Positions 1 to 54,862 of a DNA stretch of 64,000 bases are shown one piece after another (position 1 is the stretch's first letter; every line of letters begins with the position of its first letter). This DNA is from Candidatus Saccharimonadales bacterium (GTDB taxonomy: Bacteria > Patescibacteriota > Saccharimonadia > Saccharimonadales > SZUA-47), in NCBI GenBank assembly GCA_038211855.1, contig JBBQVE010000001.1, forward strand, positions 95,309 to 159,308. The letters run 5' to 3'. The notes beneath the pieces were generated by a model that was not told where the DNA came from, ran no database searches, and saw nothing but the letters and a program-made list of their open reading frames with translations. A program made the translations under genes and the position numbers.

Positions 1-396
1 ACCATTTTCAGTCATGTTTACCACGTATCAATCAATCCGATTGCCCTTGCGAGCCTCGTAGCCTTGTTTGGTATCATCCCGACAATTGGTAATATTTTGG
101 CAGCAGTCACGGTTGCAATGATTTGTTTATTTACTTCTGCGCCGCTTGCAATCACGATGCTGATTTACTTCATCATCTATCAGCAGATCGAAAATATCAC
201 GATTCAACCCTATGTGCAGTCCCGTAACAACGATTTAACGCCGATGTTAGTCTTTATTGCTGCCATCCTCGGAATCGGCTTTGGCGGCCTCTTAGGCGGT
301 TTTGTGGCCATTCCAGCAGCGGGCTGTATCAAGATTTTGCTGTCAGACTACATGGATGATCACGAGTTCAACGCATCTACCATCAAAATCGAATAA
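1..396 (+). CDS. AI-2E (PerM-like) family transporter, C-terminal part; 5' end lies outside the window
   Basis: Frame is open from nt 1. Hydrophobic helices plus a ...QQIENITIQPYVQS...AIPAAGCIKIL tail typical of AI-2E permeases. Confidence 0.7.
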   Translation, partial: TIFSHVYHVSINPIALASLVALFGIIPTIGNILAAVTVAMICLFTSAPLAITMLIYFIIYQQIENITIQPYVQSRNNDLTPMLVFIAAILGIGFGGLLGGFVAIPAAGCIKILLSDYMDDHEFNASTIKIE

Positions 397-13962: not shown

Positions 13963-13991
13963 AAAAAACGGACTTCGTTTCCGAAGCCCGT
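13963..13991 (-). terminator. Hairpin plus U6 (attenuator terminator of leader B)
   Basis: Minus strand ACGGGCUUCG-GAAA-CGAAGUCCGU followed by UUUUUU, ending about 18 nt before the ATG at 13944. Confidence 0.8.
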
Positions 13992-14011
13992 TTGGTGTGG
14001 CTGTGTGGTTG

Positions 14012-14104
14012 CTAAATGGTCGGCTTCAAATCCATAGCAACACAGCCCGTAATAATCACCACGAGGTTGGACTTGAGCGTTGTGTTGAATGAAGTTGTCA
14101 TCAT
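14012..14104 (-). CDS. Candidate leader peptide B, MMTTSFNTTLKSNLVVIITGCVAMDLKPTI
   Basis: 30 codons with SD GGAG (14118..14115) 10 nt upstream. Contains the run GUG GUG AUU AUU ACG. Not in the ORF track because it is under 60 aa. Confidence 0.45.
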   Translation of the reverse strand: MMTTSFNTTLKSNLVVIITGCVAMDLKPTI

Positions 14105-14132
14105 TACTAGGTTACTCCACATTCACATTGTG

Positions 14133-15296
14133 TCAAGCAGTGACACCACGAGCTGCCAATCGTCCACTACGCCCTTGGTACTTGCCTTCTTCGTGAACCG
14201 CATTGGTTGTATGCCCCCAGAAAGTGGGGTCAAACGGCGTGTAAATACGATGTCCGCCCTTCAAGATGCCATCGCTGTGAATGCCCGAGCGATGCGCCAG
14301 AATATCGCTTCCAACGACGGGACTTTGCCGGTCGATTTCGAAGTTGGCGAAATGCATTACAGTTTTTGCAATATTAACGGACAGACCAGGATTAAACTCC
14401 CAGTTAATACGTTTTGGGTAATCCTCGGCAAAACGGAATAAACTGGCGACAATCGGAAATATATTTGCATTTCCTGCTCGCTCGCCTAGACCACAAATAG
14501 TAGTTTCTACCTGGACGCGTATATCATGGGACACGGGAAAATAAGCAGCCGCTTCTATAAGCGCCAAGCTATTTGCTACTGCCATGCCCAAATCATTATG
14601 ATTGTGAGATGAGACTGTCACATCTGGATTTGTAGCCATAACCCACCTTAAAACTTTGCCATAAAATGTTCGCATAAATGCAGGCGAACGCTGTCCGACT
14701 GTGTCAGGAACATTAATGACATCAGCTCCGGCATCTACGGCTGTTTTTACGACTCGTTCAAGATAGTTCATATCTGTAGTTGAGGCGGCTTCTGCTGAAA
14801 ACTCAACACTGGCACCAATGTGATCAGCGCTTATCTCTTTGGCGTACCGCACTGCGTTACGTGCCATATCGTGCACATCATCAGGAGTTTTACTGGGAAA
14901 CTTAGCACTCATATGATGCGGATCGGTGGAGACAAAAGTATGGATGCGCGGTCGAGCGGCGCCCATAACTGCTGCCCATGTTTTTTCTATATCAGAGGGC
15001 AAGGTACGAGATAAGCCGGCAATGACGGGTGGTCTTGCTACTGCCTCGCTCTTACCACTTTCATTCCAACTACAGACGGTGAAGTCAGTGGTACCAACTC
15101 CCATCGCAGCAACTTCTACTTCTTCGGCATCGCTCGGCGTCGCTGGAAAACCAGCTTCAATAACTCCTATACCTAGGTGCGCAATCGCGTTGGCAATTAC
15201 CGGTTTACTGTTGTCAGGAAACTGGTGATCTGCTGGGAGCGATTGCGCGCCGTCCCTTAATGTCGTGTCAAAAAAATCTATATGTATTTCGCCCAT
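14133..15296 (-). CDS. LeuA/CimA/NifV-family (HMGL-like DRE-TIM) acyl-CoA:2-oxoacid condensing enzyme homolog, catalytic domain only
   Basis: FDTTLRDGAQS, HNHNDLGMAVANSLALIEAA. At 387 aa it lacks the C-terminal LeuA regulatory domain. Confidence 0.75.
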   Translation of the reverse strand: MGEIHIDFFDTTLRDGAQSLPADHQFPDNSKPVIANAIAHLGIGVIEAGFPATPSDAEEVEVAAMGVGTTDFTVCSWNESGKSEAVARPPVIAGLSRTLPSDIEKTWAAVMGAARPRIHTFVSTDPHHMSAKFPSKTPDDVHDMARNAVRYAKEISADHIGASVEFSAEAASTTDMNYLERVVKTAVDAGADVINVPDTVGQRSPAFMRTFYGKVLRWVMATNPDVTVSSHNHNDLGMAVANSLALIEAAAYFPVSHDIRVQVETTICGLGERAGNANIFPIVASLFRFAEDYPKRINWEFNPGLSVNIAKTVMHFANFEIDRQSPVVGSDILAHRSGIHSDGILKGGHRIYTPFDPTFWGHTTNAVHEEGKYQGRSGRLAARGVTA

Positions 15297-15315: not shown

Positions 15316-15341
15316 AAAAAAACTTCCTTTTGGCTGGAAGT
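15316..15341 (-). terminator. Hairpin plus U7 (attenuator terminator of leader A)
   Basis: Minus strand ACUUCC-AGCCAAAA-GGAAGU followed by UUUUUUU, ending about 20 nt before the ATG at 15296. Confidence 0.7.
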
Positions 15342-15405
15342 CTACTTTTCGTGGGCTGTACTGGGCGCTTTACGCGAGATTCCAACCATGCTTGAGGCAC
15401 AGCCC

Positions 15406-15453
15406 TTAAAGGCTGAGGAGGAGGTTCGCGGTGTGGTCAGATACGAAAGTCAT
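15406..15453 (-). CDS. Candidate leader peptide A, MTFVSDHTANLLLSL
   Basis: 15 codons ending CUC CUC CUC AGC CUU UAA. The RBS is weak or absent. Confidence 0.4.
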   Translation of the reverse strand: MTFVSDHTANLLLSL

Positions 15454-15486
15454 TACTTTAAGAGTACACTGATATTTTGCTACGTC

Positions 15487-15494
15487 AAATAAAA
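15487..15494. repeat. Target-site duplication AAATAAAA (left copy)
   Basis: The identical 8-mer directly abuts the other end of the IS at 17578..17585. Confidence 0.9.
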
Positions 15495-15950: not shown

Positions 15951-16156
15951 CCCCTAACGGATGGTAGCAACCCCTTAAAACGTAAGAGACCCGTGATGGG
16001 TCTCCGCGTGATTGGCTGTTTCTATTTTAGCACGGCTAGTCTAAGGGTGCACAGCATTTTCGCATGTGCTAATTAAATGTGCTTAATAATATGCAAAATA
16101 AGTATTACATTAACACCTTACAAAATGCCTTGCATAGCAAGTATATTTGTGATACA

Positions 16157-17011
16157 ATGAAGGTAATGAAGTACACGTTTGCTCAGTTCAAAAAAGAATA
16201 TCCGAACGACTCAGCATGTCTAAAATCTGTCCTAGAAAATCGCTACGGTAACACATGCCCTCGTTGCGGTGTTGTGGGCGTTAAATGGCACCCTATCACG
16301 GGTCGTAAAGGTTTTGTCTGCTCTGAGTGCGACCGCCATATCTACCCGCTTGCAGACACTATATTTCGGAAGTCAGAAACTAGTCTTTGGAACTGGTTTT
16401 ACGCCATTTACCTGTTCTCAGTCGCTAAAAACGGTGTAAGTGCCAAAGAGCTAGAACGGCATCTCGGCTGTAGCTACAAGACGGCGTGGCGTATGGCTAA
16501 ACAGATTCGCTTGCTCATGGAAGTTAATGGTAGCGACCCACTAGACGGTGCTGTAGAAATTGATGAAACATATATTGGTGGTCGCCGTAAACTTGCTCAG
16601 AAGTTCAATAACAAAAGCATCGTATTTGGCATGGTTGAACGTGACGGTCAGATAAAGTCTATGCATGTTAAAAGTGCGGGCAGTCGTGTTTTATTACCTG
16701 TAATTATCAAAGATATTGCACCTACAGCGAGTGTTCATAGTGATGAATGGGGAGCATACCGAACTTTACCTAAACTAGGCTACAGTCATACAACCGTAAA
16801 CCACAGTAAACTAGAGTATGTACGTGGATCGGCTCACACAAACACCATAGAGGGCTATTGGTCACAGCTCAAGCGCTCCGTGGACGGTACATATCACTCA
16901 GTATCGCCTAAATACTTACAGCAATACCTGAACGAGTTCTCGTTCCGCTACAATCTCAGAGGAATTGCTATTTGCCCTGTTCTTTTGGAACGGGCTGGGA
17001 AGCCTTTTTAA
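16157..17011 (+). CDS. IS1595-family (ISXO2-like) transposase
   Basis: N-terminal zinc ribbon CPRCG...CSEC, then a DDE domain (EIDETYIGG...HSDEWGAY...TNTIEGYW). The likely start is ATG 16166, 7 nt after TGaTACAAT; the track ORF starts at 16079. Confidence 0.9.
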   Translation: MKVMKYTFAQFKKEYPNDSACLKSVLENRYGNTCPRCGVVGVKWHPITGRKGFVCSECDRHIYPLADTIFRKSETSLWNWFYAIYLFSVAKNGVSAKELERHLGCSYKTAWRMAKQIRLLMEVNGSDPLDGAVEIDETYIGGRRKLAQKFNNKSIVFGMVERDGQIKSMHVKSAGSRVLLPVIIKDIAPTASVHSDEWGAYRTLPKLGYSHTTVNHSKLEYVRGSAHTNTIEGYWSQLKRSVDGTYHSVSPKYLQQYLNEFSFRYNLRGIAICPVLLERAGKPF

Positions 17012-20518: not shown

Positions 20519-21250
20519 TCAGATCTCCCTCGGTGTTCTACGTTTGTCTTTGTACGCCCGCGGTAACATCTGTTCAGGGCGCCATTCTGCGATCAATCCC
20601 ACGAGGTTATCGGCGTTACCGGGCTGGTATTTGCCAGAGAGCTTGGCGTATTCCGTGTCGACCGGCCCGGTGTGATAAAAAACTATTTGGGCGATACGTT
20701 CGCCAACTGGTAGCACGACGCTTTCATGCTGGTTCATATTGTATATTTCCATCGTCCAGCGATTGATGTAACCCGGGTCGCCCCAGCCAGCGTCCAAACA
20801 GACGGCGACACCGTTCCGGCCCCAAGTGCTACGCGCTTGCATGGTGCTGGTGCCGGGGGCTTTGATGCCGATGAACTCGTGGGTGTGCGCTAAGATGCGT
20901 TCGCCGGGACGCAGGACAATGATTGGATGATCGGCTGGAATGCCACGGAAAAGCGTGCGGCCATTTGCCTGCGCCCAAAGTGAATGCGTTTCGGCATGAT
21001 GCGGGCCATCAAAATAACGATTCACATCAGATTCATCAAAGGGGTTGTAAAAACCGCCGCTCGGGCCGCTTTCGGTCCGGTAAAACCAGTGCCCGAGAGT
21101 TACATCAACACTGCTGCCGGCAATATGCTCAGGGATGTAAGGATGGAAGACGATGTGGCCGGTTTTAATCGCTTCCATAATTTCGATATTAGAATAGACA
21201 CCCCCGACGAGTGGAGTCGCGATAACCCCTGTTCTGCTACCCTCATTCAT
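20519..21250 (-). CDS. dcd: dCTP deaminase/dUTPase-superfamily protein (Dcd-like)
   Basis: SSVDVTLG, GWGDPGYINRWTMEIYN, VGERIAQIVF. ATG 21250 lies 7 nt after TACAAT; the track ORF uses TTG 21283. Confidence 0.8.
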   Translation of the reverse strand: MNEGSRTGVIATPLVGGVYSNIEIMEAIKTGHIVFHPYIPEHIAGSSVDVTLGHWFYRTESGPSGGFYNPFDESDVNRYFDGPHHAETHSLWAQANGRTLFRGIPADHPIIVLRPGERILAHTHEFIGIKAPGTSTMQARSTWGRNGVAVCLDAGWGDPGYINRWTMEIYNMNQHESVVLPVGERIAQIVFYHTGPVDTEYAKLSGKYQPGNADNLVGLIAEWRPEQMLPRAYKDKRRTPREI

Positions 21251-36443: not shown

Positions 36444-36608
36444 ATAGTAGCAGGTGAGCTTTCATTATGTAATAATCAGTTGTCACATAAGCCTGTGGGC
36501 GAGCATAGTACTATGTATTTCAACCAGATCCGTCTTAATCTAGCTCCATTTTATTTTTACGGAATTTTGCTATAGGATACGTTTATATTGAAAGAATAAA
36601 GTGACTCA

Positions 36609-48268: not shown

Positions 48269-49145
48269 GATCAAACCTTGTAGCAAAGTCATTTGGCAAC
48301 GGCGCTTCAAAGGTGTGCATGGTGTCGTCGGGCAAACGGATTGTGAGTTTATGCGCGTGAAGATACATGCGCGGTTCATTTTTGTCGTCGCTGTACAGGA
48401 TATCGCCGATTATTGGGTGGCCGATGTGCTCCATATGGAGGCGGAGTTGGTGTGTTCTGCCTGTCAGCGGATGCAAGTCTATCATTGAGACGGTTTTGTT
48501 GCTTTTGACGATTTTATAGATGGTCTCAGCGTGTTTACCGGCCTTATCTACCTTGAACTGCTGGGGAATTTTTGGGTTGCGCGCTAAAGCAGCGATGATA
48601 TGTGCTTCTTCAACATCAGGCGTACCATGGACCAAGGCAACATATTCTTTTTGGACTTTCTTATCGGAAAATTCCTTCTGCAGGAACGTTTGAGCTACTT
48701 GGTTGCGGGCAGCAATCATGACGCCGCTGGTGGCACGATCCAGGCGGTGTACGATGCCGGCTCGTTCGCCGACCATATCTTTGGTTTTATCCCTGATAAA
48801 CGAGGCAACTGAGGCTTCTTGCCAAAAACGGCCACGGGCGTGACTGATGATGCCGGCGGGCTTGTCGACAACTATCACATCTTCATTCTCAAAAATAACG
48901 GGTAAATCAATCACATCCGGCTCTTGCTCGAGTGGACTCAGATTGGCTTTCATGACCTGCCCTATCTTGAGTTTATCGCCAGGGCGGCCCGGTTCGCCGT
49001 CTATCGTGATATTGCCCATATCAAACAATTTCTTGAGGGCAGCACGACTGTACTGGGTAAAGGCATCAGCCAAGACGACATCAGCTCGCTTTCGGGCCGT
49101 CGTTTCGTCGATCGTCAGATCCATGGCGTGTGCGAGGTCAGGCAC
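48261..49145 (-). CDS. RluA-family 23S rRNA pseudouridine synthase (RluD-like) with an S4 domain
   Basis: HRLDRATSGVMIAARN catalytic motif. Confidence 0.9.
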   Translation of the reverse strand: MPDLAHAMDLTIDETTARKRADVVLADAFTQYSRAALKKLFDMGNITIDGEPGRPGDKLKIGQVMKANLSPLEQEPDVIDLPVIFENEDVIVVDKPAGIISHARGRFWQEASVASFIRDKTKDMVGERAGIVHRLDRATSGVMIAARNQVAQTFLQKEFSDKKVQKEYVALVHGTPDVEEAHIIAALARNPKIPQQFKVDKAGKHAETIYKIVKSNKTVSMIDLHPLTGRTHQLRLHMEHIGHPIIGDILYSDDKNEPRMYLHAHKLTIRLPDDTMHTFEAPLPNDFATRFDHG

Positions 49146-50169
49146 GGAGACCTACGGCTTTTTGTACCTTAAATAGCGTGTTATTGGCGACCTTATTCAT
49201 GGTGATTTCATCTTCCTCGAGCTTTTTGTGAATCTCCTGCACACTTGTCTTGGCGAGTTTAGCCTGGAAATCCGTCAAAAAGTCCTTGATAAACCCGGCG
49301 ACCTCCGTTTTTAGGGGGCCATATTGGGCCTGTCCTTGCCACTTTTCAATATATTCAGCAACGTGCTGAGCGCTCAAAAGAGCACCGATTTGGAGCAGAT
49401 TACTAATACCGGGTCGTTCTTTGAAGTTGAACTGAATATCGGCAAAACTATCGGTTGTGGCACTCATAATCTTTTTAGCAGCCGCTTCCGGTGCATCGGT
49501 CATTAGAATGGTTCCGGCTGGGTCCTCGACACTCTTACTCATCTTCTTTTCGGGATTTCGCAGTGAGCGGATACGGATGCTTTCGTCACGACCGGTAAAC
49601 GCGACCTGCTTTTTCCATTCGGGCGGCACAACGAATAACTCACCGAATTTACTGTTAAGGCGTAAGGCGAGATCGCGCGTGAGTTCAAGATGCTGTCTCT
49701 GGTCATCACCAAGCGGAACATAGGTGGCGTTGTAGAGTAGGATATCCGCTGCCATGAGGATCGGATAATTGAACTGACCAACGGAAACTGTTTCGTTACC
49801 GATTTTGGCGGATTTATCTTTGAACTCAATCATGCGGCTGGCCTCGCCAAAATAGGTGAAGCAATCCAATATCCAGGCAAGCTCGCTATGGGCTGGCACA
49901 TAACTTTGGCGGTAAATGAAAGTGTCTTTATCTTCAATATCGAGTCCGGCAGCCACGAAAACTTGCAGATTTGCCATGATGTTACCCAGTAGCTTACTGT
50001 GGTCAATCGGCGTAGTAAAGCTATGCAAGTCAGGAATGAACATGTTGACCTGATATTTGCCGGCGTATTTCTTTTGGAGTTCGACCATCGGCAAAATCGC
50101 CCCTAGGTAGTTACCGAGGTGGAATTCGCTGTTTGCTCGAAGCCCCGTTAATATGACTGGTTTACTCAT
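49138..50169 (-). CDS. trpS: Tryptophan--tRNA ligase
   Basis: FHLGNYLGA (HIGH-like) and KMSKS. ATG 50169 lies 12 nt after a minus-strand TGCTATAAT (50190..50182); the track ORF extends to 50202. Confidence 0.93.
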   Translation of the reverse strand: MSKPVILTGLRANSEFHLGNYLGAILPMVELQKKYAGKYQVNMFIPDLHSFTTPIDHSKLLGNIMANLQVFVAAGLDIEDKDTFIYRQSYVPAHSELAWILDCFTYFGEASRMIEFKDKSAKIGNETVSVGQFNYPILMAADILLYNATYVPLGDDQRQHLELTRDLALRLNSKFGELFVVPPEWKKQVAFTGRDESIRIRSLRNPEKKMSKSVEDPAGTILMTDAPEAAAKKIMSATTDSFADIQFNFKERPGISNLLQIGALLSAQHVAEYIEKWQGQAQYGPLKTEVAGFIKDFLTDFQAKLAKTSVQEIHKKLEEDEITMNKVANNTLFKVQKAVGLRA

Positions 50170-50205
50170 CGTAGTGGTCTCATTATAGCAAGAACTGTTC
50201 AAGAG

Positions 50206-51072
50206 CTAGGCCTCCATCCTCAAGATAGCCTCAAAGTGCTGCAAATCACGCTCAACCTGATAACTGTGAGCGGTACAATTACTATCATTGCCGGCCAAAA
50301 CGTCGTCTAACAGCTGCTCGCCCCCACTACCTATTGAAAAGGGCGATATGACATGTTGCGTGAGCACCTGAACAGATGGGACTGTAAGGCTAGCGGGCAT
50401 TATGTTCCCCACTCCGCTGCATGCCGCATGCGTGAGGCGATCCTGCTCAGGACCTACCGTGACAATTCGCTTCGGGGAGACAATATTGGCCGCATTGAAG
50501 AGTGTATGAAGGTGCAGGAACTTTGTGTGAGTCCCTGTAAACCTAGCGCCTATAAAATCAGCGGGGTTTCCGCCGTGTCGCTGCGCACGCTCATACAACT
50601 TCCGCCTAATGTAATAGTCGGTGCTCATATATCGTTCTACGATAGGTTCCATAGTATTAATATGCTCTGGGGTGGTGTCTTCAGCAAAAATTGTTTTTTC
50701 AGATATGTCGGGCATGTTTCTATGGAGGAGAGCTGATCCAAAGAGCGCTAATTTTTTAAATTGTGGCAGTGAATCGACTAGGGCAACCCCGTTCACTTGT
50801 TCTCCAACTTTTGCAGTGTGGATTATCTGTAACTGCTCAATAGGTACGAGCTGTGCTATACGAGCTGCCGAAAGTAGCAAAGTAGCCGCACGCATAGGCA
50901 TCTGCTTCTTAGCATCGACGAAGACCCTTAAGACATTTCCTTCTCCGCCTGAATGTTCAAGTACTTCTTCAAAGGCTGGTTTGTCTGCTTTTATGACGCT
51001 TTCGACGTATGCCAATTCGTCTTTAACGAGCTGTTTACTCATCCGTGAAGCGCGTGGTGTTAAGTCTTTCAT
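50206..51072 (-). CDS. Hypothetical protein (288 aa from ATG 51072)
   Basis: SD AAGGA lies 8 nt upstream of ATG 51072. No recognised motif. Confidence 0.55.
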   Translation of the reverse strand: MKDLTPRASRMSKQLVKDELAYVESVIKADKPAFEEVLEHSGGEGNVLRVFVDAKKQMPMRAATLLLSAARIAQLVPIEQLQIIHTAKVGEQVNGVALVDSLPQFKKLALFGSALLHRNMPDISEKTIFAEDTTPEHINTMEPIVERYMSTDYYIRRKLYERAQRHGGNPADFIGARFTGTHTKFLHLHTLFNAANIVSPKRIVTVGPEQDRLTHAACSGVGNIMPASLTVPSVQVLTQHVISPFSIGSGGEQLLDDVLAGNDSNCTAHSYQVERDLQHFEAILRMEA

Positions 51073-51252
51073 AGTAAAATTCCTTTTCAAAAATGTATTA
51101 AATTTAAATGTCCGTCACGTGTATCCGGTGACGGACTATTCAATGCATTCGAATTTTTACAAACAAACAGAATAAACCATCACGGTGGAGAGATGGTGAG
51201 CCAATAGCCTTTGATTATAATTCGTAGTGTAAACATTGTTTTGTCTTTAGGT

Positions 51253-51552
51253 CTACAGAAATTCACCTGTAGCAATATTAATTGTAATAGGTGGCGAGTC
51301 GGGTACTTCTGTGGGAGGTTCAAGCGGTCCGGTGAGCAGCAAAGCAAGCTCTCCAGCTTTAGCACGGATCTCTTTATGAAAATCTATTCGTTCCCAGCTC
51401 GTCAGATGACCTATGGAACATTCGGCAAGCGACATAAGATGCGTCGCTATGTTAGGCCGTATGTCGCTCGCCTTAATCACGCCATTCTTATAGGCATCTT
51501 TGATACTTTGAGGGATTTGTTCGATTGGATTGGGTTCTATTTCATCAGTCAT
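51253..51552 (-). CDS. Hypothetical protein (99 aa)
   Basis: ORF overlapping the upstream gene's stop by 4 nt, suggesting translational coupling. Confidence 0.5.
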   Translation of the reverse strand: MTDEIEPNPIEQIPQSIKDAYKNGVIKASDIRPNIATHLMSLAECSIGHLTSWERIDFHKEIRAKAGELALLLTGPLEPPTEVPDSPPITINIATGEFL

Positions 51553-52379
51553 GGTACTTTCACCTTTTTCGGTGCTCTTATTGGAGGTATGAGTTCGATA
51601 TGGTAGCCTTCCCGCTCAATCCCTCTAAGTGCACATCTCGTATCAAATTTACGTGTTTTTGGGTCGAGTACAAAGTAAAAACCTCTGTTAAAGTCTGTGT
51701 CTTCTGGCGCATTCCGCCGTGCCATATTGATGAGGTTGACAGTCTTAAGATGATTCAACACTCTGTCAAGTGATCCTATTCTGTGGTCAGTCAGCACATA
51801 GAGCGTTTCTGCTTTGTGTGGTCGTTTTAGACCCTTTTGACCGGGCCAATTGTCATGTAGCGGTGTCGCAAGTTGTTTTGACCGGGTCGGAATAACTTCT
51901 AGTGTACTGATAGGTGTATAAGATCCCAGAATGACCGGCGCGAGTCCTTTTAGCCTCATTTGATTGAGCGCACGCTTTACGACGCCGTCGTGCTGTTCGA
52001 GCTCAGCAAAGAAGGCGCGGTGATGCGTATCTTTTGGAGCGAGATGGCTATCAATGTCAGTAATATTTACGCCGTTTTTTCTCAGAATATTTGTTGTTGT
52101 TCGTAAACCGCCCGCTTCGTCAGGTACTTCAAAGGTAATTGCGGTGTGGGTGCCTTCTTGCTCATGGCCTTTTTGCAAAGGATGTACAACCCAGAACTTT
52201 GTGGCATTATGGGGTGAGTCATCAAATTCTGCGTTGGTCTGAAAACGATTTAGCAACTCATCATGTGTAGCGACAGGAACGAGCTCCACTCCTTGTAATG
52301 ATTGCCCATAGTAAACACGAGCCGCTTCTTCGTGGAAGGAGCCGCCTAACGCCTCTGCTTGGATACCTACTAACTTCAT
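51549..52379 (-). CDS. Prephenate-dehydratase-derived protein: a truncated PDT remnant plus two ACT-like domains
   Basis: N-terminal MKLVGIQAEALGGSFHEEAA matches the PheA start. NATKFWVV matches the PDT C-terminal N.TRF.V block. FEVPDEAGGLRTTTNILRKNGVNITDIDS is ACT-like, as is the second YVLTDHRIGSLDRVLNHLKTVNLINM. The central roughly 100 aa of the PDT catalytic core appear absent. Confidence 0.5.
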   Translation of the reverse strand: MKLVGIQAEALGGSFHEEAARVYYGQSLQGVELVPVATHDELLNRFQTNAEFDDSPHNATKFWVVHPLQKGHEQEGTHTAITFEVPDEAGGLRTTTNILRKNGVNITDIDSHLAPKDTHHRAFFAELEQHDGVVKRALNQMRLKGLAPVILGSYTPISTLEVIPTRSKQLATPLHDNWPGQKGLKRPHKAETLYVLTDHRIGSLDRVLNHLKTVNLINMARRNAPEDTDFNRGFYFVLDPKTRKFDTRCALRGIEREGYHIELIPPIRAPKKVKVP

Positions 52380-52386
52380 ATTTATT

Positions 52387-52408
52387 AAAAAACCGCCTTG
52401 TTGGCGGT
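52387..52408 (-). terminator. Hairpin plus U6 (attenuator terminator of leader C)
   Basis: Minus strand ACCGCC-AACAA-GGCGGU followed by UUUUUU, ending 7 nt before the ATG at 52379. Confidence 0.75.
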
Positions 52409-52432
52409 CTGTGCTTTCTTCTCAAAACTTAT

Positions 52433-52528
52433 TTATTGAATTACAAAAACCGCTGGAGTTGACTCCGTAAACCAAAAGTAGCTGTTATAGCGGTTTAAAT
52501 TGCTCATCCAACAGATAGTAGCACACAT
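52433..52528 (-). CDS. Candidate leader peptide C, MCATICWMSNLNRYNSYFWFTESTPAVFVIQ
   Basis: 31 codons with an alternative start at ATG 52507. Contains the run UAU AAC AGC UAC UUU UGG UUU. No clear SD. Confidence 0.4.
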   Translation of the reverse strand: MCATICWMSNLNRYNSYFWFTESTPAVFVIQ

Positions 52529-52541
52529 TATTGCCAAAAAC

Positions 52542-52573
52542 AAAAAACTTCCCGTTTGGCTGGGAAGTTTTTT
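52542..52573. terminator. Terminator after rpsI
   Basis: AAAAAACTTCCC-GTTTGGCT-GGGAAGTTTTTT. Confidence 0.85.
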
Positions 52574-52591
52574 GCAGTTCTTTGACGTAAT

Positions 52592-52987
52592 TTAACGCTT
52601 GGTGAACTGACGCTGTTTACGTGCGCCCTTGAGGCCGAACTTCTTACGTTCGCGTTCACGAGGATCGCGACCGAGGAGCTCCGCACGTTTCAAGGTGCTT
52701 TTGAGATCTTCGTTCATTACAACGAGGGCTTTGGCGATTCCGAGGCTGATTGCATCAACCTGACCGGCGTGACCGCCACCGCTGACGAGAACAGACACAT
52801 CAAACTTATCGTTTTCGATGACAACAAATGGCTTTACGAGATCAGTCATCAACATAGCACTGCCAGCGAAGTACTCGCTTGCGGGTACCTTATTGATCGT
52901 AATGATGCCTTTGCCATTCATGACTCGAACACGAGCTGTGGCGCTCTTGCGACGGCCGAGGCCGTAAAAATAACTCTTTTCAGCCAT
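52592..52987 (-). CDS. rpsI: 30S ribosomal protein S9
   Basis: GGGHAGQVDAISLGIAKAL...KKFGLKGARKQRQFTKR. Confidence 0.97.
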   Translation of the reverse strand: MAEKSYFYGLGRRKSATARVRVMNGKGIITINKVPASEYFAGSAMLMTDLVKPFVVIENDKFDVSVLVSGGGHAGQVDAISLGIAKALVVMNEDLKSTLKRAELLGRDPRERERKKFGLKGARKQRQFTKR

Positions 52988-52989
52988 GA

Positions 52990-53433
52990 TTATTTGGTCT
53001 CCTTCTTCAAGCTCAGGGTAACTGGCTTCTGGGCTTCATGATTATGCTCGCTACCAGCATAGATTTTAAGGCGCTGCAAGCGAGCAGGACGAAGTTTGTT
53101 AACTGGAATCATGCCACGTACGGCCTTCTCAACGACGACAGTTGGATCAATCGTGATTTGCTCTTCAAGCGTACGTTCGCGCAGACCACTCGGGTAACCA
53201 CTATAGTGATAGTAAATCTTGTCTTTGGTCTTGTTACCAGTAGTGATTAAGCTGGCAGCGTTTATGACGATGACAAAGTCACCGCAGTCAATGTGCTGCG
53301 TATATTGCGGCTTCTCTTTTCCTGTAAGTAGTGTCGCGATCCGAGTTGCCATACGGCCAAGCGGAACCTCGGCTGCGTCAATGACGAACCAAGCGCGTGT
53401 CACATCAGTTGGTTTTGCGGAATAGGTCTTCAT
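52990..53433 (-). CDS. rplM: 50S ribosomal protein L13
   Basis: WFVIDAAEVPLGRMATRIATLLTGK. Confidence 0.97.
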   Translation of the reverse strand: MKTYSAKPTDVTRAWFVIDAAEVPLGRMATRIATLLTGKEKPQYTQHIDCGDFVIVINAASLITTGNKTKDKIYYHYSGYPSGLRERTLEEQITIDPTVVVEKAVRGMIPVNKLRPARLQRLKIYAGSEHNHEAQKPVTLSLKKETK

Positions 53434-53910
53434 TTATTTGGCCTCCTTGGCAACAGCTTTTTTAGCTGGTGCTTTTTTAGCGGCTGTCTTGGTTGCGGTT
53501 GTTGCTGGCTTTTCAGCAGCGACTGCGCTGACGGCGACTGGTGCTTCGTTGAGGTCATCAACAAAGCTGACGCGTGCCATCATGGTGTTATCACCGCGGC
53601 GAGCAGTTGTACGCTCAATGCGGAGATGACCACTGTTACGGCCGCTTAGTTTTGGTGCAATTTCGTCTACCAGCTTGTGAGCGGCTTCGAGAGTCTGCAA
53701 TTGAGCGATGATCTGGCGGCGATTGTGTAAATCTCCAACTTTTGCCTTCGTAATCAGTTGTTCAACGTAAGGAACAATTTCTTTTGCTTTGGAAATAGTC
53801 GTTTCAATGGTGGTGTGCAGGATTAAAGCTTCAGCGAGGCTGGCCATAAGCGCTGCGCGCTGGTCGCGTTCTCGTCCGAACTTTCTTCCTTGGTATCCGT
53901 GGCGGTGCAT
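53434..53910 (-). CDS. rplQ: 50S ribosomal protein L17 with an Ala/Lys-rich C-terminal tail
   Basis: MHRHGYQGRKFGRERDQRAAL. Confidence 0.95.
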   Translation of the reverse strand: MHRHGYQGRKFGRERDQRAALMASLAEALILHTTIETTISKAKEIVPYVEQLITKAKVGDLHNRRQIIAQLQTLEAAHKLVDEIAPKLSGRNSGHLRIERTTARRGDNTMMARVSFVDDLNEAPVAVSAVAAEKPATTATKTAAKKAPAKKAVAKEAK

Positions 53911-53911
53911 C

Positions 53912-54862
53912 TTATAGCTCCAACTCTGCGAGCTTTTCTTTTACTTCGTCGAGTGCTTTACTGCCAAACCCTTTCAGGTCACGCAGTTCTGCATCGCTCA
54001 GAGAGAAAAGGTCTTTTAGGGTGTGAATATCGTTATTGATGAGGGCATTGGTGGTCCGAGCACTCAGGTTCATGTCTTCGATTGATGTATCGAGCATGGT
54101 TGGCTCTTCAGATGACTCTGAAGTTGAAGTGCTTTCAGCTTTGGCGCTGGTCAGGGGAGCGCCGACTTCGACGCGGGTAGCGCCAGCAAGTGCGGTGTAC
54201 TGATTCACGAGGATAGCTGCAGCTTCTTCAAACGCATCACGTGGCGTGATAGTCGCGTCGGTTTCAACCGTCAAAAGTAAGCGGTCAAGATCAGTCATTT
54301 GGCCGACACGGGTGTTTTCCACGCGATAACGGACACGCATGACAGGGCTGAAGATGGCATCAAGTGCAATCATGTCGGTTGAAGTGCGCTTGGTAGAGGC
54401 TTCATCGATTGAGCGGTAGCCGCGGCCTTTTTCGACGACAATATCGATCGCAATTGATGATTTGTCGGTGTCGAGCGTGGCAACGACGTGCTCAGGATTA
54501 ACGACTTCGACGTCAGCGTTCAGCGTGATATCTTTTGCGGTGACAAGGCCTTTGCCTTTTTTGGTAATCCGTAGCGTCTGTGGTTCGTCGCTGAACACGC
54601 GGAAGCGGATGCCCTTTAGGTTCTGCATGATGTCAACAACGTCTTCTTTGACGCCTTCGGCAGTCGTGAATTCGTGGGTGACGCCTTCGATGCGGAAGGC
54701 TGTGATCGCTGCACCGGCAATACTCGAAAGGAGTACGCGGCGTAGTGAGTTACCGAGCGTCATCCCATAACCGGTGTGAAGTGGCTCGACAACAAATGTC
54801 GCGCTGGTTGCACTATGGTCGGTGACATTCGATAGTATTGGTGTATGTATAGTTTTAGACAC
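53912..54862 (-). CDS. rpoA: DNA-directed RNA polymerase subunit alpha
   Basis: N-terminal-domain-like sequence (EPLHTGYGMTLGNSLRRVLLSS) and a C-terminal domain with LSARTTNAL...LKGFGSKALDEV. Confidence 0.96.
   Translation of the reverse strand: MSKTIHTPILSNVTDHSATSATFVVEPLHTGYGMTLGNSLRRVLLSSIAGAAITAFRIEGVTHEFTTAEGVKEDVVDIMQNLKGIRFRVFSDEPQTLRITKKGKGLVTAKDITLNADVEVVNPEHVVATLDTDKSSIAIDIVVEKGRGYRSIDEASTKRTSTDMIALDAIFSPVMRVRYRVENTRVGQMTDLDRLLLTVETDATITPRDAFEEAAAILVNQYTALAGATRVEVGAPLTSAKAESTSTSESSEEPTMLDTSIEDMNLSARTTNALINNDIHTLKDLFSLSDAELRDLKGFGSKALDEVKEKLAELEL

Follow-up and report, generated by a model that had tools for sequence, protein, structure and literature searches.

The minus strand of the window, as we call the whole 64,000-nucleotide (nt) stretch of Candidatus Saccharimonadales contig JBBQVE010000001.1 analysed here, carries a 162-nt leader region (52380..52541) between the ribosomal protein gene rpsI and a gene for a 276-residue (aa) protein derived from prephenate dehydratase (PDT). 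We conclude that this region is very likely a ribosome-mediated transcription attenuator, in which translation of a leader-peptide open reading frame (ORF) would sense how plentiful charged aromatic tRNAs are. What is observed in eight loci, the window and seven other distinct loci designated L001, L002, L004, L008, L016, L018 and L019, is the set of sequence elements with its alternative pairings, pairing energies, conservation and geometry. The features, leader peptides and downstream genes are collected in Table 1.

The original prediction placed a second terminator between the rpsI terminator (52573..52542) and the gene, 7 nt before the ATG, and it is present as described. Its GC-rich stem of 8 base pairs (bp), as expected of an intrinsic terminator, is formed by AGACCGCC and GGCGGUUU (52410..52403 and 52397..52390), which constitute regions 3 and 4 of the attenuator; these enclose an AACAA loop and are followed by six U residues extending to 52387. 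The core of region 2, GCGGU, duplicates region 4, and the alternative pairing of region 2 with region 3 that had been proposed (GCGGUUU/AGACCGC) is not only found but lengthened by UGU/GCA. The 2:3 fold and the terminator hairpin have the same energy, −12.4 kcal/mol, and the 2:3 duplex alone has −13.3 kcal/mol. The stop codon of the leader ORF, expected shortly past region 2, lies 11 nt beyond it. Folding of the 162-nt RNA, a check that had been recommended, gives −42.1 kcal/mol (z = −2.87 relative to dinucleotide-shuffled sequences), and the minimum-free-energy fold comprises 1:2 plus 3:4. A duplex of the terminator 5′ arm with upstream RNA equalling that observed occurs in 38 of 1000 dinucleotide shuffles of the window and in 2–46 of 1000 in the same analysis of four relatives. 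A second copy of GGCGGTTTTT in the window, at 21049, falls within coding sequence and has no connection with the leader.

The leader ORF had been read from 52528 to 52433, encoding MCATICWMSNLNRYNSYFWFTESTPAVFVIQ and a stop. The frame and its run of codons UAU AAC AGC UAC UUU UGG UUU (Y-N-S-Y-F-W-F) are as proposed, but the start is not. Comparison with relatives, together with a likely −10 box that falls inside the 21-nt extension at the beginning of the longer version, leads us to reject 52528, and the real start is very probably ATG 52507. Within seven codons the ORF contains Y, Y, F, W and F, the clustering of amino acid codons expected of a leader peptide. Among 621 short ATG-initiated ORFs in the window, three have four aromatic residues in four positions, and two of these are the same mini-ORF read from its two starts; in the window's long ORFs, 8.1% of residues are aromatic. 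Another short ORF with an aromatic run (MYFNQIRLNLAPFYFYGILL, at 36513 on the plus strand, between two minus-strand ORFs) may be a chance occurrence.

A search upstream of orthologs, also recommended in the original prediction, revealed the mini-ORF, the aromatic run, region 2 and the terminator in the seven further loci; this recurrence is the decisive argument that the features are not a product of chance. The contigs of relatives of the 276-aa protein carry rplQ-rplM-rpsI and then PDT, often followed by trpS-rluD; scans of genomes and metagenomes with a PDT alignment supplied one new locus (L008) and duplicates, and the L016, L018 and L019 leaders were reached via DAHP synthase homologs. 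All eight leaders stand before PDT or DAHP synthase(-PDT) genes, and this association is kept while the upstream neighbour varies (rpsI, clpP or a cohesin-like gene). The leader was not found at the more distant PDT homologs L005, L007, L014 and L015, which have 31–34% identity or an overlapping upstream gene. Leader nucleotide identity to the window is 64–85%, the highest value being that of L002; for rpsI it is 66–76%, and the adjacent PDT proteins are 41–45% identical.

The leader frame, 19–24 codons long, is open in all eight loci, and frames 1 and 2 mostly contain stops. Each leader has 3–5 clustered aromatic codons in frame 0, versus 0–3 in the other frames. The identity of the aromatic residues drifts among Tyr, Phe and Trp (YSYFWF, MYWF, FAFFAF, FWNYAYF and QYWF), and there is in addition a synonymous UUU/UUC change; such interchange is the pattern expected under codon-level selection. 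The GCG of region 2 (core GCGRU) follows the last codon of the cluster at 15 nt in six loci and at 16 nt in L018 and L019. Because the reading frame across this GCG differs among loci (Ala-Val versus Gly-Gly) at a fixed distance, region 2 is constrained as RNA and not as peptide. The stop codon falls 0–18 nt beyond region 2, depending on the locus.

An ORF present in eight loci with its own promoter-like site and terminator might instead encode a functional small hydrophobic or aromatic protein, to which the PDT-derived gene would be unrelated in its expression, and trans-acting leader peptides are indeed known (peTrpL, PMC7298713). We consider this extremely unlikely. Outside the aromatic cluster the peptide is poorly conserved, its C-terminal part changes frame among loci, and the presence in region 2 of a copy of region 4 would be left unexplained. 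Moreover, the relatives also have a terminator between leader ORF and gene, and the distance from its U-tract to the annotated start codon is only 6–25 nt; this leaves no room for a separate promoter, and the gene would therefore be transcribed by read-through only.

Comparison of the helices among the loci reveals both shared and variable parts. The energies of 2:3 and 3:4 are −12.4/−12.4 kcal/mol in the window and −12.0/−11.3, −15.5/−12.5, −16.1/−14.6 and −14.3/−10.2 kcal/mol in relatives, such that 2:3 is at least as stable as 3:4 in all five loci for which both energies are available (window, L001, L002, L004 and L008). In L008, regions 2 (GGCGAU), 3 (AUCGCC) and 4 (GGCGAU) have changed in concert. 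Whole-leader alignments made with MAFFT misplace region 3 in L004 and L016, and pairs were counted on an alignment of the spliced regions 2, 3 and 4: 90.6% of positions pair for 3:4 and 76.6% for 2:3, compared with 25–65% when the regions are slid (28–55% for 2:3 slid by 1–3 columns). The perfect pairing of regions 1 and 2 that was originally described holds for the window, where the helix has 8 bp, but it is not the general form, being limited to a subtype made up of the window and L002. At the corresponding position L002 carries AAACUGUU, which still pairs by way of two G-U pairs, and in both of these loci region 1 is upstream of the aromatic run, whereas the other loci have an ACCGRC region 1 directly after the run. 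A 1:2 helix is present in L002, L004, L016, L018 and L019; it is weaker in L001, where the hairpin is based on an interrupted ACCG/CGGU pairing, and weak in L008.

Table 1. Features of the leader region and its surroundings in the window, and downstream genes and leader peptides at the eight loci (each peptide is followed by a stop codon)
Feature	Position or locus	Strand	Sequence, content or basis
Weak −35-like hexamer, putative	52538..52543	−	TTGTTT, read from sequence; overlaps rpsI-terminator T-tract
Extended −10 box, putative	52515..52523	−	TGcTACTAT; ends 7 nt before ATG 52507; conserved in alignment
Leader-peptide ORF	52433..52507	−	MSNLNRYNSYFWFTESTPAVFVIQ; 24 codons + UAA
Region 1	52489..52496	−	AAACCGCU; pairs with region 2 (anti-antiterminator); minimum-free-energy folds
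Regulatory aromatic codons	52469..52489	−	UAU (52489..52487); UAC UUU UGG UUU (52480..52469)
Small hairpin abutting region 2	52455..52466	−	GGAG-UCAA-CUCC; kept in L002 as GGAG-ACAA-CUCC
Region 2	52443..52454	−	AGCGGUUU (52454..52447) + UUGU; pairs with region 1 or region 3
Region 3	52403..52414	−	GCAC-AGACCGCC; terminator 5′ arm; antiterminator partner of region 2
Region 4 + U6	52387..52397	−	GGCGGUUU + U6; terminator 3′ arm; ends 7 nt before ATG 52379
Regulated gene, 276 aa, PDT-derived	51549..52379	−	Family matches, homolog alignment, structure model
Intrinsic terminator of rplQ-rplM-rpsI operon	52542..52573	−	AAAAAACUUCCC-AGCCAAAC-GGGAAGUUUUUU + U-rich tail
Downstream of leader	Window, L001, L002, L004		PDT
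Downstream of leader	L008		DAHP synthase gene overlapping PDT
Downstream of leader	L016 (identical to L017)		rpsI-leader-DAHPS-PDT-257aa-157aa-trpB-trpA
Downstream of leader	L019		rpsI-leader-DAHPS, then gene cut off
Downstream of leader	L018		clpP-leader-DAHPS-rpoB
Leader peptide	Window		..RYNSYFWFTESTPAVFVIQ
Leader peptide	L002		MKTVNTYSYFWFTETTPAV
Leader peptide	L001		MLISKHNAMYWFTDFNEAVI
Leader peptide	L004		MLANISAFAFFAFTDSKEAVR
Leader peptide	L008		MSTTTQNCAYWFASFKKAIV
Leader peptide	L016		MLRVSFWNYAYFINPRVATSS
Leader peptide	L019		MSTAQSNQYWFTGTSRGGLFCKRA
Leader peptide	L018		MSKQSTTQYWFTDTSRGGLLNLFA

The lack of a Shine–Dalgarno (SD) sequence before the mini-ORF, and a possible lack of a promoter, had been counted as weaknesses of the original prediction. 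An alignment of five loci shows all the specified bases of TGnTAnnnT (T, G, T, A and T) to be invariant, and across the loci a −10 box of the type TGnTAnnAT ends 6–7 nt upstream of the mini-ORF ATG. L008, L001, L018, L019 and L016 each have one promoter-like site per 500 nt scanned, scoring 9–11 out of 12, whose −10 hexamer ends exactly 7 nt before this ATG. In the window a TTGTTT hexamer precedes the −10 box at a spacing of 17 nt, and the arrangement in L002, TTGTTT-17-TAGTAT, is the same. Since the distance from −10 box to ATG is fixed at 6–7 nt, the leader mRNA is probably leaderless or has a 1-nt leader. The conserved box would thereby explain the missing SD and supply the promoter, a plausible resolution of both difficulties, although the window's own promoter is weak.

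These observations bear on a second way of reading the element, as a translation-independent switch operated by a trans-acting factor or ligand (a T-box with its tRNA, a riboswitch, or a TRAP- or PyrR-like protein), the ORF being incidental. An RNA that folds better than its shuffles, as noted above, and helix cores highly conserved in nucleotide sequence are compatible with such a switch, and the regulated protein itself has amino-acid-binding ACT domains. The openness of frame 0 in every locus, the concentration of aromatic codons in it, the fixed 6–7 nt between −10 box and ATG, and a stop codon always at or shortly after region 2 all argue for translation, and no conserved unpaired sequence resembling a ligand pocket was seen in the leaders. 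A scan of positions 51000..54000 of the window against Rfam at E <= 10 returned no leader family, T-box or riboswitch, and six related loci gave no Rfam match at gathering score. The matches to STnc230, mir-73 and isrG in the window interval are chance ones, on the opposite strand. We judge a translation-independent switch to be highly improbable.

The effect of ribosome position on the attenuator was examined by folding the nascent RNA with a ribosome on each aromatic codon. The footprint of the ribosome is assumed to extend some 12–13 nt 3′ of the A-site codon, and RNA lying 13 nt or more beyond the first base of the A-site codon was treated as free to pair. With a ribosome on the aromatic codons of the cluster, the minimum-free-energy fold is 2:3 in eight of eight loci (−12 to −17 kcal/mol); only at the two 5′-most Phe codons in L004 is the 1:2 hairpin retained. 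Once the ribosome has reached the stop codon, 3:4 alone can form, and in ribosome-free RNA of L004, L016, L018 and L019 region 2 is held in 1:2. The folds thus agree with the logic first put forward, in which stalling gives 2:3 and completion of translation gives 3:4. The masking of region 2 by a terminating ribosome is less complete than had been supposed, however: at the UAA of the window, it covers roughly the 3′ half of region 2 only, which suffices to break GCGGUUU:AGACCGC.

The transcription start, the translation of the mini-ORF, the stalling of ribosomes and both termination and read-through are our inferences from sequence, and the attenuator would operate as follows. Transcription would start about 7 nt after TGcTACTAT, at or beside the A of ATG 52507, and the 24-codon ORF would be translated leaderless. 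With Tyr-, Phe- and Trp-tRNAs in good supply, the ribosome would proceed over region 2 (AGCGGUUU) to the UAA, blocking 2:3; region 3 (AGACCGCC) would then pair with region 4 (GGCGGUUU + U6), and RNA polymerase would terminate 7 nt before the gene. Should any of the aromatic tRNAs be poorly charged, the ribosome would stall on UAC-UUU-UGG-UUU with some 5 nt left between its front edge and region 2, and would cover region 1 or keep it off region 2. Region 2 would be left to take up the emerging region 3, no terminator would form, and transcription would read through into the PDT-derived gene. If there is no translation, 1:2 and 3:4 would form and transcription would terminate.

The same switch could in principle be driven in the manner of TnaC, by arrest of the nascent peptide together with free aromatic amino acid, (Y)WFT(D/E) being the arrest sequence. 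The residues after the aromatic run are alike in six of the eight loci (T-E, T-E, T-D, T-D, T-G and T-D), and the window and L002 both retain T-E despite a switch of pairing partner in the underlying RNA (ACGGAG versus ACCGAC). Such a device would, however, bring about read-through when aromatics are abundant, which is the wrong sign for biosynthetic genes. The motif is moreover broken in L008 (A-S) and L016 (I-N), L004 has F-A-F-F-A-F in place of Y-W-F, and ACCGRC is accounted for as a region 1 that pairs with region 2. Arrest by the nascent peptide is therefore very unlikely.

Several points weigh against the attenuator that we favour, and they temper our confidence. All of the support comes from sequence, and every locus is derived from metagenomes. 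In four loci including the window, a ribosome-free transcript ending after region 3 prefers 2:3 over 1:2; because 2:3 is thermodynamically preferred there, default termination depends on kinetics or on the translating ribosome. The 1:2 helix takes more than one form across the loci and is weak in L008. Codon 21 of the window ORF is a Phe codon, UUU, inside region 2, and stalling at this codon would tip the balance towards termination. There is little formal covariation: the cores of the helices hardly vary, two-sided change occurs in one locus only, and covariation shuffles are not significant (54 of 500 for 3:4; none of the measures for 2:3). The promoter TTGTTT-17-TACTAT of the window is weak by consensus, matching at 7 of 12 positions, and the promoter scanner makes no call. 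Finally, neither in the window nor in L002 is the structural gene preceded by an SD.

The gene downstream had been described as PheA-like. It is indeed derived from PDT, but most of the catalytic domain has been deleted. Alignment with homologs of 389–400 aa reveals an in-frame loss of about 115 aa, columns 55–184 of the PDT-domain alignment being missing: the protein aligns at residues 1–54 and then again from "QTNAEFDDSPHNATKFW" on, and keeps the ACT domain and a second ACT-like domain. In the full-length homolog P0006, residues 2–283 match solved PDT–ACT structures, and about 115 aa at the C terminus make up an additional domain. Modelled with AlphaFold, the 276-aa protein has a mean predicted local distance difference test score (pLDDT) of 65, falling below 50 in the N-terminal remnant, and contains two confident β-α-β-β-α-β units at residues 78–154 and 191–264. 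Its best structural matches are tandem-ACT regulatory domains (IlvA, SerB2 and acetohydroxyacid synthase (AHAS) small subunits). The protein is probably in essence a tandem ACT module, and not a working dehydratase. In the retained ACT and C-terminal parts it keeps 85 of 99 family-conserved positions, on a par with full-length homologs, so that the gene is still under constraint.

This truncation raises the question of whether the leader is a relic, the attenuator of a formerly functional pheA that now precedes a dead gene or serves mainly as a second terminator behind rpsI. The missing PDT columns and the poorly modelled N-terminal remnant are in keeping with this idea, as is the 294-aa neighbour in the window, which differs from the DAHP synthase found in relatives. 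Nevertheless, the leader elements are all intact and 85% identical to those of L002, which precede a full-length PDT, the family-conserved positions are kept no worse than in full-length homologs, and a strong separate rpsI terminator is already there. We consider a relic very improbable. The possibility that the 294-aa gene encodes a decayed DAHP synthase was ruled out (BLASTP E = 0.57–1.2).

Among 5.8 billion clustered proteins, the 276-aa protein has only nine relatives, each 389–400 aa long and with the PDT domain complete. Metagenome-assembled genomes labelled Candidatus Saccharimonadales or Saccharibacteria are the source of the closest relatives, both of the protein and of its neighbours. 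The family architecture of PDT, ACT and an extra ACT-like domain in 389–400 aa is rare, with 10 clusters in the 5.8 billion.

The logic of the mechanism is classical, that of trpL and pheL; we found no report in the literature of attenuators in Saccharibacteria, Patescibacteria or the candidate phyla radiation (CPR), the group to which Saccharimonadales belong. The archetype is trpL–trpE of Escherichia coli, with its regulatory codons and four regions, of which region 2 copies region 4, and pheL–pheA works by the same 1:2/2:3/3:4 scheme. As in trpL–trpE, region 2 of the window leader duplicates region 4 and 2:3 excludes 3:4. The two differ in that region 1 of the window and L002 is upstream of the regulatory codons, where that of trpL contains them, and in the stop codon position, which here varies by locus between 0 and 18 nt past region 2, and the variable 1:2 helix. 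The pheL leader is a short ORF upstream of pheA with one or more runs of Phe codons at an internal position (PMC3082878). The window resembles it in having a short aromatic-codon ORF and an intrinsic terminator directly upstream of a PDT gene. Its codons are mixed, however (Y-F-W-F, two of four being Phe), Phe-only clusters occurring just in L004 (F-A-F-F-A-F); pheL is SD-led and found in gamma-proteobacteria, whereas the window ORF is apparently leaderless in a Saccharimonadales host; and the PDT regulated here has an extra ACT-like domain and no chorismate mutase fusion. Nor is there any sequence or structure match to Rfam Phe_leader, and since no Rfam family matches, the window leader is not a member of that family. 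The likeness to pheL–pheA and trpL originally pointed out is thus upheld as regards attenuation, but the mixture of Tyr, Phe and Trp codons brings the leader nearer to an 'aro' leader than to pheL.

The closest analogues are the aroF leader of Corynebacterium glutamicum and the leaderless leader peptides of Actinobacteria. The former, which precedes a DAHP synthase gene, carries Phe-Tyr-Phe (PMC4046766) and is, like the leaders of L008, L016, L018 and L019, a mixed-aromatic leader before DAHP synthase; compared here by description, it belongs to another phylum, and the window leader precedes a PDT remnant. In Actinobacteria (for example trpL1, leuL and ilvL of Streptomyces lividans and ilvB of C. 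glutamicum) the leader ORF begins at the transcription start with no SD, and hairpins and a U-stretch follow before amino acid biosynthesis or tRNA synthetase genes (PMC8079986, where Morbach 2000 and Neshat 2014 are also cited). The window leader shares the ORF at the putative transcription start, the lack of an SD, and the hairpins and U-stretch. It differs in that its leaderless status is deduced from the distance between −10 box and ATG, in its lineage (Patescibacteria/CPR) and in its aromatic codons.

The leader would provide a concrete cis-regulatory element in Saccharimonadales and Patescibacteria, which are mostly uncultured and whose gene regulation is almost uncharted. An attenuator implies coupling of transcription to translation; here it further implies that promoters are sigma-70-like, with extended −10 boxes, and that initiation is leaderless. 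It also marks a small clade that keeps regulated aromatic (and Leu and Trp) biosynthesis genes beside a ribosomal protein operon. Being absent from Rfam, the leader family is a candidate for a new model, and the rule of a −10 box followed by N7 and ATG could help to annotate their small ORFs and transcription starts more accurately. A truncated PDT, or tandem ACT, behind an intact attenuator prompts the question of what survives when a biosynthetic enzyme decays.

On the minus strand of the window, rpsM-rpsK-rpsD-rpoA-rplQ-rplM-rpsI precede the leader, and the 276-aa gene, an overlapping 99-aa gene, the 294-aa gene, trpS and a pseudouridine synthase gene follow it. The loop of the rpsI terminator, AGCCAAAC, is common to the window and L002 (1690..1725 in the latter), with compensatory stems: CUUCCC/GGGAAG in the window versus CUCCUC/GAGGAG in L002. 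No separate rpsI terminator is visible in L004, L008, L016 and L019, and in these loci the attenuator terminator may double as that of the ribosomal protein operon. The PDT and trpS genes are syntenic and co-directional in several genomes (L015 3871..6185; L004 1974..4475; window 49138..52379); in L015 they overlap by 4 nt, which suggests that they form an operon there. The 162-nt gap before trpS in the window (51091..51252) has no obvious terminator, and transcription past the attenuator possibly enters further genes as well as the PDT-derived one. The L006 contig begins inside a leader (1..50), whose terminator AACCGCCUC-CAAA-GAGGCGGUUUUUU leaves only 2 nt to the annotated ATG of P0003; translation of P0003 probably begins instead at a GTG after AAGGAG, a few codons downstream.

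Other leaders of attenuator-like design were found. In L016 (7225..7420), TTGACA...TGaTAGTAT-N7-ATG is followed by a mini-ORF encoding MSNLQDDQIIPNLGQQGAWRNSQDTWESI, with two Trp codons, by the terminator AGCUCCC-GAAA-GGGAGUUUUUU, and then by a 157-aa gene and trpB-trpA; the arrangement resembles a Trp attenuator that shares the leaderless design. Two more are on the minus strand of the window. One (15320..15490) has TTGACG-N16-TACTCT-N7-ATG, a mini-ORF encoding MTFVSDHTANLLLSL (CUC CUC CUC AGC CUU) and the terminator CUUCC-AGCCAAAA-GGAAGUUUUUUU, directly upstream of a 387-aa HMGL-like (LeuA-type) gene (15296..14133). The other, a candidate (13966..14115), has TAACCT-N7-ATG, a mini-ORF encoding MTTSFNTTLKSNLVVIITGCVAMDLKPTI, rich in Thr, Val and Ile, and the terminator GGGCUUCG-GAAA-CGAAGUCCGUUUUUU, upstream of overlapping genes of 112 and 159 aa that gave no Pfam match. 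The arrangement of −10 box, N7, ATG, mini-ORF and terminator, seen twice more in the window and before trpBA in L016, suggests that attenuation is a recurrent device in these genomes.

More speculatively, leaderless leader-peptide attenuators might be a general means of amino acid sensing in environmental Saccharimonadales; the aromatic one would have been kept in this genome to control a PDT cut down to a tandem-ACT module that binds amino acids as a sensor and not as an enzyme, and perhaps the syntenic trpS. We advance this tentatively, as a conjecture less likely to be right than wrong. If true, it would amount to direct sequence evidence that transcription and translation are tightly coupled and that initiation is leaderless in a phylum to which amino acid biosynthesis and elaborate regulation are usually denied.

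The hairpin of the Leu leader, CUUCC-AGCCAAAA-GGAAG (about 15325..15345), is near-identical to that of the rpsI terminator. A gene for an IS1595/ISXO2-type transposase (16079..17011, plus strand) adjoins the locus formed by the Leu leader and the LeuA-like gene.

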